A stretch of 64,000 nt of DNA from Thermoplasmata archaeon (GTDB lineage: Archaea; Thermoplasmatota; Thermoplasmata; Lutacidiplasmatales; UBA184), in the NCBI GenBank assembly GCA_028864975.1, contig JAGWLG010000001.1, positions 154,980-218,979 of the forward strand, in the 5' to 3' direction. Position numbers and translations under genes: made by a program. A model generated the notes under the pieces. That model was not told the origin of the DNA, made no database searches, and saw nothing but the letters and a program-made list of their open reading frames with translations. Shown piece by piece: positions 37,949 through 40,282 of the stretch (the first letter of the stretch is position 1; every line of letters begins with the position of its first letter).

Positions 37949-38290
37949 CTACCGTGGCGGGTCTGAACCAGGACGGGACGTCGGGACCTGAGGGGACCAG
38001 GTCTGGATCGAGGCCTTGCCCTCCCGCATAACGAGCCTCAAGACCTGCTCCACAAGCTCGGGGTCAACGTCGTTGACCAGAGCCCACGCTCTCGCGCGCC
38101 GGAACACCTGACGTTCCTGGGCACGGTCCTCAGCCGGAACTAGGTGCTCTCGCTTCCAGGCTTGGAGCTCGGCAACCTCGTGGAGCCGCAAGGCGATGGC
38201 CGCAACCAAGAGGCGGTCCGCTCGAGCGATTCGGTCGCGGAACGCCGCCAGGTCGGATACCGTCGATCGTTCCGAGGGCCGGTCGAGCAC
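37949..38290 (-). CDS. AroQ-type chorismate mutase family protein (divergent)
   Basis: FRDRIARADRLL..IALR...AWK...EDRAQE pattern of type II chorismate mutases. Confidence 0.75.
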   Translation of the reverse strand: MLDRPSERSTVSDLAAFRDRIARADRLLVAAIALRLHEVAELQAWKREHLVPAEDRAQERQVFRRARAWALVNDVDPELVEQVLRLVMREGKASIQTWSPQVPTSRPGSDPPR

Positions 38291-38375
38291 GATGGTGCGA
38301 ACCGCAGGGAGGAAAGGCCCGTTCGCCGCACCGGTTCGGCCGCTCTGTTAGGTGGGAGCGAATGGTCGCTCGGTC

Positions 38376-39566
38376 ATGGAGCTCGTCCTCGCGACCAACT
38401 TCGATGACCGGCTTGTCGAGCGGGTGCGGGAGCTGCCCGTTACCACCTTCTTCGGCGGATTCCCGACGTCGCTCACTGGAGGGGGGCGCCCTCCCTACAT
38501 CCTCCCGTCCGTCACCGAGGACCGCTTCGCGGAGCACCTCGAGGTCATTCATCGACGCGACCGAAGGTTCTTCGCGACCTTGAACACCAACGACCTGGGG
38601 CTCAAGGAATACGAACCGGATTTCCTGGATCGGTTCCGAGCGGAGGCGAACTACCTGCTCGACCTCGGGGTCGATGGGTTCGTAGTGGCGATCCCTCTCC
38701 TGCTCGAGATCCTCCGTTCGGACCACCCCCACGTGCCGGTATCGGCATCGACGTTCGCTCGACTTCGCACTGTCAATCAGGCGATGTACTTCCGCCGGAT
38801 GGGGGCCGAGCACGTCATCCTGGAAGAAGGGAACCGGGACTTCCAGCTCATTCGCGGCCTTACCAAGGCCAAAGTCCCGGTCGAGGTCCTTGTCAACCAG
38901 ACCTGCATCCGCGACTGTCCGTACCGCGCGCACCATCTCAACACTAGCTCGCTCTGCTCTCAAGAGGGATCGTCCCCGATCTGGTTCGAGCACCCGATCC
39001 TCCAGTGCGGGCTTGAGGTGATACGCGACCCCACGAAGCTGGTCTCGTCGATCTGGGTCCGTCCAGAGGACCTCGCGGTCTACGAGGAGGCGGGGGTCCA
39101 CCGTTTCAAGATCTCGGGGCGCAACCGTTCGACCGACTGGCTCGTCAAGGTCGCCCAGGCCTATACCTCAAGGAAGTACGAAGGCAATTTGCTCGACATC
39201 CTGAGCTTCGTGCAGGTGAAGGCCCCGAGCCAGGCGCTCGAGGTCGCAGCCCGGGGCCCCTCCCCAACCCCCAAGGATGTCGAAGCTCTCCAGAAGGCGT
39301 TCCGACCTCTCCAGGACGTTCGGATCGACAACCAAGCATTCCCTCCTGGCTTCATGCGCCGCATCGCCGAGACCGATTGTGAGCACCTCTCGTGCGAGAG
39401 CTGCCGATACTGCGCCTCCGTGGCAGAGAAGGTCGTCCGGATCGGCGGCGCCCCACCCTCTCGCTACCATCCCCCGGCAGCGGTCCCGCCCTCGTTCCGT
39501 GTGCTTCCGAGCTTCGGCGGAGCCCCGGCCCCGGCGAAGGACAGGCTGGAGATGAGGGCGAGGTGA
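38376..39566 (+). CDS. U32 'peptidase' family Fe-S protein
   Basis: EVLVNQTCIRDCPY, QCG, VRPEDL, FKISGR; extra C-terminal CEHLSCESCRYC. Confidence 0.8.
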   Translation: MELVLATNFDDRLVERVRELPVTTFFGGFPTSLTGGGRPPYILPSVTEDRFAEHLEVIHRRDRRFFATLNTNDLGLKEYEPDFLDRFRAEANYLLDLGVDGFVVAIPLLLEILRSDHPHVPVSASTFARLRTVNQAMYFRRMGAEHVILEEGNRDFQLIRGLTKAKVPVEVLVNQTCIRDCPYRAHHLNTSSLCSQEGSSPIWFEHPILQCGLEVIRDPTKLVSSIWVRPEDLAVYEEAGVHRFKISGRNRSTDWLVKVAQAYTSRKYEGNLLDILSFVQVKAPSQALEVAARGPSPTPKDVEALQKAFRPLQDVRIDNQAFPPGFMRRIAETDCEHLSCESCRYCASVAEKVVRIGGAPPSRYHPPAAVPPSFRVLPSFGGAPAPAKDRLEMRAR

Positions 39567-39568
39567 GG

Positions 39569-40282
39569 ATGTCGACGATCTCGGGTCGGACGGGCGCCGC
39601 GGCTCCGGGAGGAGGTCCCGGCGCGAGCCATACCGGTCGGGCGAACGATGTAAGCCGTGAGCTCACGTCACCCGAGACGCGGCACATGACCTCCGGATAC
39701 GACCCGATACGCACCCTGATGGACGAGCATGAAGGCTTCCTAGCACGCGTAGAGGCCATGCGGCACACCTGGCGCTCGGCGCTGAAAGGGCGCAACCGCG
39801 TCAGCACGCTTCCTGGTCAAGTGGCGGCGTTCGCTCGGTTCCTTGCGCGAGACCTTGACGAGCTTCATGCGGCCAAGGAAGAGCGCGCGCTCTTCCCCGT
39901 GATCGCTCGCCATCTACCCTCCGAGGGTGGCCCCGTCGGGGTCATGCTCGGAGAGCATGAGCTGCTGCGCGGTTTCCAAGCCACCCTGGCGAAGAGTGGT
40001 GACACCCTGACCTCCGATCCCTCCGACGAGCGGGCGGTGGCTACGACCACCCGGGTCCTCTCTGAGATCGAGTCGCTCCTCTCCCAGCACTTCGTCAAGG
40101 AGGACTTCGTCCTCTTCCCGACGGCCCAGGAGATCCTGTCGAAGAACGAGCTCGCCGAAGTGTCCCGGGTCTGCCTGGAGATCGAGGCCGCCTACGAGGA
40201 GCGCTACGGCCAGAGCCCGTTGCTGCTGAGTGCGGGGGTAGGCCTCCCCTCCGAGGGCTCCCGGGGCCTCGCCAGGTCCTAG
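39569..40282 (+). CDS. hemerythrin domain protein
   Basis: LMDEH, LHAAKEERALFP, MLGEHELL, QHFVKEDFVLFP (full ligand set); 2 nt after the U32 stop. Confidence 0.9.
   Translation: MSTISGRTGAAAPGGGPGASHTGRANDVSRELTSPETRHMTSGYDPIRTLMDEHEGFLARVEAMRHTWRSALKGRNRVSTLPGQVAAFARFLARDLDELHAAKEERALFPVIARHLPSEGGPVGVMLGEHELLRGFQATLAKSGDTLTSDPSDERAVATTTRVLSEIESLLSQHFVKEDFVLFPTAQEILSKNELAEVSRVCLEIEAAYEERYGQSPLLLSAGVGLPSEGSRGLARS

Follow-up and report, generated by a model that had tools for sequence, protein, structure and literature searches.

Why would an archaeon keep a stand-alone gene for a chorismate mutase (CM), whose product is prephenate, back to back with a gene for an iron-sulfur (Fe-S) protein of the U32 family, directly upstream of an operon for benzoyl-coenzyme A (benzoyl-CoA) dearomatisation? 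The question is raised by a stretch of 64,000 nucleotides from a Thermoplasmata archaeon (GCA_028864975.1, contig JAGWLG010000001.1, positions 154,980 to 218,979), which is called the window here, has a base composition of 66% G+C and codes for proteins whose homologues come from uncultured Thermoplasmata. U32 proteins offer a clue, since prephenate was described in 2024 as the oxygen-atom donor of UbiU and UbiV in anaerobic ubiquinone synthesis, a chemistry considered by the same authors to be likely common to U32 proteins at a time when a function had been assigned to only a minority of the twelve U32 subfamilies (PMC10990095). As described below, CM and U32 are conserved and inherited together as a two-gene module in one Thermoplasmata family, and this module may hydroxylate a small aromatic molecule without O2.

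The first three homologues found on long contigs all had a divergent CM_2 gene 54-97 bp from U32 (3/3) and differed in their other neighbours. A scan of one genome per species covered 77 Thermoplasmata loci and 3 Sulfolobaceae loci, 73 of which were informative, i.e., had enough DNA upstream of U32. Iterated hidden Markov models placed CM divergent from and directly upstream of U32 in approximately 66 of these 73, and the other neighbours of the pair varied among the species loci. Co-inheritance was tallied in 180 genomes of one Thermoplasmata family, including the unpublished genome G547, which carries U32, CM and BcrB and without which each count would be one lower. U32 occurs in 84 of the 180 genomes and an orthologue of the CM in 78, each of them also with U32; both genes are thus present in 78 genomes, U32 without CM in 6, CM without U32 in none and neither gene in 96. 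Several of the six matches to U32 alone are fragments. Orthologues of the CM were called at a profile threshold of 1e-18, the CM of the window scoring 8e-33 and the housekeeping CM domains of the same genome 2e-12 or weaker. The pair is found in the same two of eight genomes of genus g4 and in the same three of nine genomes of genus g164, and all five genomes of genus g3 keep both genes, though unlinked, on different contigs. The linkage of AroQ and U32, a survey of which had been suggested in the preliminary description of this DNA, is therefore strongly conserved. U32 is nearly absent from the rest of the phylum (14 of 401 sampled genomes, a count that includes the genome of the window and two weak matches), and this sparse distribution argues for an accessory rather than a housekeeping function. 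A complex prediction for a CM dimer with U32 returned a score of 0.00, which gives no verdict and speaks neither for nor against binding.

The simplest objection is that the two proteins have no common function, U32 being a collagenase-type peptidase, in keeping with the label “collagenase-like PrtC protease” given to its family in sources, and CM an extra isozyme for aromatic amino acids. Such a coincidence is scarcely credible given that co-inheritance is near-perfect, with no genome that has CM alone, that CM and U32 have one operator-like palindrome in common, and that seven invariant Cys are typical of Fe-S enzymes and not of peptidases.

In the window, the genes are arranged in the order HTH_10 regulator (-), CM (-), an 85-bp gap, U32 (+), hemerythrin (+) and oah-bcrB-bcrA-bcrD-bcrC-dch-had (+), with the following features:

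37036..37884, minus strand: HTH_10 transcription regulator (PF04967, 5.7e-17), likely true start Met27 at 37806
37822-37835 and 37868-37881: two operator-like sites, CCTGACCGGTGAGG and CCTGACCGGTGCGG, matching the CCNNACCGGTNNGG pattern, upstream of the probable HTH_10 start
37949..38290, minus strand: stand-alone AroQ-type chorismate mutase-like protein of 113 aa (CM_2, PF01817, 3.2e-12, 46.9 bits)
38326..38339: palindromic operator-like site CCGCACCGGTTCGG, inside the 85-bp CM/U32 divergent region
38376..39566, plus strand: divergent U32-family Fe-S protein of 396 aa, seven-Cys subfamily (PF01136, 5.7e-13, 49.1 bits)
39569..40282, plus strand: hemerythrin, HHE domain (PF01814, 1.6e-16), conserved start probably ATG 39686
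39628..39641: operator-like site CCATACCGGTCGGG, 54 nt before ATG 39686, the start kept among hemerythrin orthologues
40359..40372: operator-like site CCGTACCGGTGCGG, upstream of the oah/bcr operon
40422..47553, plus strand: oah-bcrB-bcrA-bcrD-bcrC-dch-had, class-I-type benzoyl-CoA dearomatisation operon (best matches in Pfam and NCBIfam)

The coordinates given earlier for AroQ, U32 and hemerythrin all hold. The start codons of CM (GTG 38290) and U32 (ATG 38376) are 85 bp apart and the Peptidase_U32 Pfam match lies in the frame 38352/38376-39566 (+), so that Pfam matches and sequence bear out the divergent arrangement of an AroQ-like gene and U32 proposed in the preliminary description. Its placement of the unit directly upstream of a benzoyl-CoA operon likewise agrees with the best matches of the downstream genes, which are oah, bcrB, bcrA/D, bcrC, dch and had, although these best matches score under the NCBIfam cut-offs (BcrB 362 vs 487 bits; Had 276 vs 339 bits).

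The region between the divergent genes, which measures roughly 90 bp in the family, contains a palindrome with the consensus CCGCACCGGTGCGG, whose core begins 45-50 nt ahead of the start codon of U32 in most of the 77 species loci; in the window, its ACCGGT core is located 46 nt upstream of the U32 ATG. The palindrome is also present in three loci in which CM was not detected, one of them too short upstream to inform. Within the window, the pattern CCNNACCGGTNNGG has 6 matches compared to 0.23 expected, a number reached by none of 100 shuffles, and five of the six fall within 2.6 kb, two at HTH_10 and one each at CM/U32, hemerythrin and oah. A related motif (CCCCTAACCGGTACGGGA and close variants with the same core) is found upstream of oah in 12 of 12 further family loci. 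Across the genome, the strict palindrome (at most one mismatch) has 6 matches against approximately 7 expected, hence no overall enrichment, and the genes at the remaining strict matches give no coherent picture; the information lies in how the sites group around U32 and bcr, and in the matches to the relaxed pattern within the window, not in the strict genome-wide count.

The same predicted operator type ties CM-U32 to the bcr operon in what appears to be one regulon. In many genomes, a frequent gene order is oah-bcrBADC-dch-had, HTH_10, CM, operator, U32. The HTH_10 gene adjoins CM or U32 in about 60 of the 80 loci and adjoins the bcr operon even in genomes devoid of U32; in two genomes that have bcr and lack U32, it comes right after had. 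The adjacency of bcr in the window is not incidental, because the HTH_10 regulator and the common palindrome tie the pair to bcr throughout the family. An orthologue of BcrB is present in 64 of the 180 family genomes, U32 and BcrB occurring together in 55, U32 without BcrB in 29, BcrB without U32 in 9 and neither in 87 (odds ratio of approximately 18). Judged by predicted operators and gene content, the U32 and bcr gene sets are co-regulated and tend to travel together, yet are separable. The literature searched contained no mention of U32 together with benzoyl-CoA.

These ties lend some weight to the proposal that CM-U32 works in anaerobic aromatic catabolism, with U32 processing an aromatic acid or aryl-CoA that feeds benzoyl-CoA reductase and prephenate serving as co-substrate: the bcr operon adjoins HTH_10-CM-U32 under the same operator type, and U32 and BcrB tend to co-occur. 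We consider this proposal rather unlikely nonetheless. U32 and CM are found in some fairly complete genomes that lack BcrB, and other genomes that lack U32 have BcrB together with the regulator. Four genomes of genus g3 have a BcrB match, but in three of them its identity is just 43-44%, so that it may not be orthologous, and no palindrome was found upstream of CM or U32 in the loci retrieved (4 CM and 2 U32 loci from four genomes). Spending one prephenate per substrate molecule would be costly, and neither a CoA ligase nor any other peripheral enzyme is conserved beside CM-U32. A narrower claim, which we regard as more doubtful still, is that the seven-Cys U32 with its private CM would be the first prephenate-dependent, O2-independent hydroxylase in anaerobic aromatic catabolism, acting on an aromatic acid or aryl-CoA that enters an archaeal benzoyl-CoA pathway. 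If this were true, the by-product phenylpyruvate would itself be degradable by the benzoyl-CoA pathway.

Two arrangements were noted in the g3 loci (L151-L154, from genomes G067, G206, G402 and G401). The U32 gene there lacks the palindrome, its promoter being of the plain TATA type (GTTATATA), and points away from a gene that by eye resembles one for PCNA. The CM orthologue immediately follows a stretch that by eye resembles the C-terminal end of an acetyltransferase, to which it may be fused.

The window U32 passes the gathering score of PF01136 (49.1 vs 22.4 bits) and is the only U32 match in its genome. Its AlphaFold2 (AF2) model has a predicted local distance difference test score (pLDDT) of 91 and the U32 TIM-barrel fold, with 5D88 as the top structure match in the PDB. 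A profile search of 1.8 billion cluster representatives recovered 3098 relatives. At E<=1e-30 these number 610, the minimum size of the wide, uncharacterised seven-Cys subfamily to which the sequence comparisons assign the protein, a large group defined by the present work. Seven Cys (C177, C181, C211, C335, C340, C343 and C346) are invariant in a sample 27-42% identical to the window U32. Their spacing is C177-x3-C181, then C211, then C335-x4-C340-x2-C343-x2-C346, a layout that suggests two metal sites, one with three Cys ligands only and the other with four. Of the usual four-Cys motif of U32 proteins (C-x6-C plus C-x3-C in TrhP), which holds the [4Fe-4S] cluster in UbiU/V, RlhA and TrhP, only C177-x3-C181 is kept, and C211 and the four C-terminal Cys are invariant in its stead. 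The preliminary description had regarded the C-x3-C core and the four-Cys tail as unlike known enzymes; both motifs are indeed present and invariant, but C-x3-C also occurs in E. coli TrhP.

The protein is an orthologue of neither TrhP, RlhA nor UbiU/UbiV. TrhP is its best NCBIfam match, with a score far under the cut-off of the equivalog NF011996 (22.5 vs 534 bits), and also its closest characterised E. coli homologue by hhalign (probability 97%, E 6e-11), a homology at the level of the fold. A Pfam scan returned PF01136 only, i.e., neither Peptidase_U32_C nor DUF3656. The idea of a plain TrhP orthologue was therefore rejected. TrhP (YegQ), the prephenate-dependent tRNA U34 hydroxylase, has in common with the window U32 the C-x3-C element and the TIM-barrel core, whereas the latter lacks the C-x6-C segment and Peptidase_U32_C and has the extra C-terminal four-Cys motif. 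RlhA, to which DUF3656 is unique (PMC5727448), was rejected by the missing domain and by length (396 aa vs approximately 650). UbiU and UbiV were also set aside on account of the single U32 match in the genome, hence no tandem paralogues, and of a score of 18.1 bits against the UbiU equivalog cut-off of 440. The nearest protein of known structure is MK0906 from Methanopyrus kandleri (PDB 5D88), which ranks first in the structure comparison with the window U32 (Foldseek E 1.9e-10, TM 0.72 by target) and was also the single match when the PDB was searched by sequence (E 7e-7). The two proteins differ in that identity is 21% and the match covers only the barrel, about 250 residues. To our knowledge, MK0906 has no assigned function.

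An RNA hydroxylase like TrhP (tRNA ho5U34) or RlhA (23S rRNA ho5C2501), equipped with its own CM, would agree with the closeness to TrhP and with the prephenate need of TrhP and RlhA (PMC5727448; PMC6599085). We find such a role improbable in view of the weak TrhP score, the missing Peptidase_U32_C and DUF3656 domains, and the patchy distribution of U32 in the family with almost none elsewhere in the phylum. In addition, U32 has a dedicated regulator and operator, and relatives in its subfamily adjoin genes for tailoring enzymes of small molecules. For instance, one relative is translationally coupled to an O-methyltransferase (L129:607-2809) and another to two UbiE-like methyltransferases and a DUF362 Fe-S protein (L130:3176-6857). 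A third locus (L115:1-6449) encodes a HemN-like radical SAM protein and a fused protein that joins a PTase_Orf2 aromatic prenyltransferase to a radical SAM/SPASM enzyme, followed by three tandem U32 proteins of the seven-Cys type; this cluster could make a prenylated aromatic compound with several hydroxyl groups without using oxygen. Radical SAM/SPASM genes are found among further neighbours in the subfamily. Because the relatives adjoin methyltransferase, prenyltransferase and radical SAM genes, tailoring of a small aromatic appears preferable to RNA modification.

If a U32 hydroxylase is to use prephenate, a source of it is needed, and here the complement of CM domains becomes relevant. The genome has three: one fused to prephenate dehydrogenase, one fused to prephenate dehydratase, and the stand-alone protein of the window. 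Since the fused enzymes consume their own prephenate, the stand-alone CM is the only candidate source of free prephenate, and a third, stand-alone CM would fit a dedicated supply. The literature searched made no link between a dedicated CM and an archaeal U32.

The CM passes PF01817 (46.9 bits vs a cut-off of 27). Alignment with the CM domains of E. coli PheA and TyrA indicates that Arg11, Arg28, Asp48 and Glu52 are kept and that position 39 is Lys or Arg across the clade. The same alignment confirms that the equivalents of Arg51 and of Ser84/Gln88 are missing, as had been seen by eye: Gln stands at the place of Arg51, an invariant Gly-Lys occupies positions 84-85 (Gly for Ser84), and position 88 is not conserved. 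The fused housekeeping CM domains of the genome also lack Arg51, but in them residue 84 is Ser or Ala and the Gln of position 88 is retained. Given an unusual active site with part of the key residues kept, mutase activity is plausible and not assured.

It is consequently conceivable, though in our view unlikely, that the AroQ-like protein is no CM, i.e., that it is an isochorismate-pyruvate lyase, another pericyclic enzyme or a binder of chorismate or prephenate, and that U32 performs some other Fe-S chemistry on a chorismate-derived compound. The remodelled site (Gln for Arg51, Gly-Lys at 84-85, no conservation at 88, Lys or Arg at 39) and the presence of PchB among the PDB matches favour such a role, as would a three-Cys site if it left one iron free for substrate. 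Conversely, the protein keeps Arg11, Arg28, Asp48 and Glu52, the proteins and models that it matches best in the PDB and NCBIfam are genuine chorismate mutases, and the absence of Arg51 is common to the housekeeping CM domains of its own genome.

The hemerythrin passes PF01814 (61.3 vs 25.3 bits), and its di-iron ligands (H54, H100, E104, H130, H174 and E178) are invariant in six orthologues, in agreement with the full-ligand protein reported earlier. Its relation to U32 had been read as coupling across a 2-nt gap. The gap exists in the sequence, as the U32 stop TGA (39564-39566) is followed by GG and by ATG 39569. However, the first 39 residues of the hemerythrin frame are unconserved and the orthologues start at the Met encoded by ATG 39686; translational coupling is doubtful because this conserved start has an operator-like site 54 nt upstream. 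A comparable site is located between U32 and hemerythrin in locus L026, and the hemerythrin is probably under its own promoter. Among the 77 Thermoplasmata loci, U32 is followed by a hemerythrin gene in only four (L023-L026), where U32 is 72-81% identical to that of the window; in one more locus it is on the opposite strand, and in another genome it stands beside oah. The self-contained unit of the preliminary description is thus an overstatement as far as hemerythrin is concerned. Hemerythrin was rejected as an integral CM-U32 subunit, since it is not conserved with the pair, and is better regarded as an accessory of the gene island.

The regulator is informative as to the conditions under which these genes may be used. 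NarO of haloarchaea has a Cys-rich N-terminal domain. In the N-terminal domain of the HTH_10 protein of the window, C87, C148, C158 and C161 are invariant across 59 orthologues, and Pfam recognises no domain besides HTH_10. Its model has a pLDDT of 79, and a Foldseek search of the PDB gave no match at E<=0.001 for the protein, sensor domain included. NarO is described as an oxygen sensor, and both NarO and DmsR as Bat-like regulators that activate anaerobic respiration and contain neither PAS nor GAF domains (PMC11218638). The window regulator resembles both in its HTH_10 output domain, in the absence of PAS and GAF and in its predicted control of genes used without oxygen, and differs from them in its putative targets, the CM/U32 pair and the bcr operon instead of nar/nir or dms. 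By analogy with NarO and DmsR, which have the same build, it would be a redox or O2 sensor. A low-oxygen signal fits because the regulon includes an oxygen-sensitive class-I-type reductase, because in this genus hemerythrin belongs to it, and because motif copies precede genes for a second hemerythrin, MsrB, OsmC and HxlR. Together, these features suggest that the Thermoplasmata abundant in peat and soil have a low-oxygen regulon to which benzoyl-CoA ring reduction belongs.

With regard to the copies outside the gene island, CCNNACCGGTNNGG is found just upstream of an OsmC-like gene (window 17129-17142), of the second hemerythrin gene (G000:C54:56766) and of an MsrB gene (G000:C53:57267), and intergenic copies elsewhere in the genome also precede HxlR genes. 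The OsmC-like, hemerythrin and MsrB genes give a hint of a redox-related regulon; approximately one third of the 34 motif matches in the genome are expected by chance, which makes these other copies weak evidence.

The explanation that we favour is that of an anoxia-induced, prephenate-dependent, O2-independent hydroxylase module for a small aromatic, and taken as a whole we give it about an even chance of being right. The HTH_10 regulator would sense redox state or O2 and switch the genes on at low oxygen, and the stand-alone CM would supply free prephenate. U32, predicted to be an Fe-S enzyme built on a TIM barrel, with one site of three Cys and another of four, would take an oxygen atom from prephenate and hydroxylate a small aromatic without O2, as proposed for UbiU/UbiV. 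We infer that RNA is a less likely substrate than a cofactor, a quinone-like molecule or an aromatic acid/aryl-CoA. Prephenate supply, O2-independent hydroxylation, induction by anoxia and the small aromatic nature of the substrate are all predicted from sequence.

The closest parallel to this proposed hydroxylase is UbiU-UbiV, which acts with UbiT in the O2-independent hydroxylation of ubiquinone in E. coli. Both systems use Fe-S proteins of the U32 fold. A dependence on prephenate has been demonstrated for UbiU/V (PMC10990095), and the dedicated CM suggests one for the archaeal protein; expression tied to anaerobiosis and a probable small aromatic substrate would be further likenesses. The differences are also substantial. 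UbiU and UbiV are a paralogous pair, whereas the archaeal host has a single U32 gene accompanied by its own CM gene; similarity to UbiU (18.1 vs 440 bits) is limited by hhalign to the N-terminal half, with a probability of 72%; and the invariant Cys number three plus four. Moreover, we know of no archaeon that makes ubiquinone.

Several points weigh against the proposed hydroxylase module. The activities of CM, U32 and the regulator are all predicted from their sequences, and when the UbiU/V study appeared, an in vitro assay had yet to be published for any U32 enzyme (PMC10990095). The CM has Gly-Lys instead of Ser84 and lacks the conserved Gln/Glu at 88, U32 lacks the C-x6-C half of the four-Cys motif (a gap in its hhalign alignment with TrhP), and the redox or O2 role attributed to the regulator depends on its build and on weak hints from the regulon. 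Finally, genomes of a single family are non-independent samples. The CM-U32 module nevertheless provides independent comparative-genomic support for a link between U32 and prephenate in archaea, and offers a small system for probing U32 chemistry, made up of only two genes whose operator and regulator are defined.

Additional observations concern the neighbourhoods of the regulator and of distant U32 homologues. A radical SAM gene of the AmmeMemoRadiSam system stands upstream of HTH_10 in one locus (L003:3554-4621), and a cluster similar to it in size and position, which may be the same gene, is found in 17 loci; this is probably sub-clade synteny. Distant U32 homologues surveyed for substrate clues showed no single theme. 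In Metallosphaera yellowstonensis (L100:4001-7956) and in the Thermoplasmatota genus g11 (L017:741-3964), U32 proteins of approximately 40% identity are coupled to metallo-beta-lactamase-fold proteins that are orthologous to each other, with 43% identity across the two lineages. No CM is adjacent to either of these U32 genes, and a close orthologue of the metallo-beta-lactamase protein was not found in the genome of the window. The Metallosphaera locus also contains AhbD-like and AhbC/NirJ-like radical SAM genes, and that of g11 a radical SAM/SPASM maturase of the type found with ribosomally synthesised and post-translationally modified peptides (RiPPs). In another genome (G567, L116:13299-16000), malate synthase and isocitrate lyase genes directly follow U32, an arrangement that would suit growth on acetyl-CoA from ring degradation.

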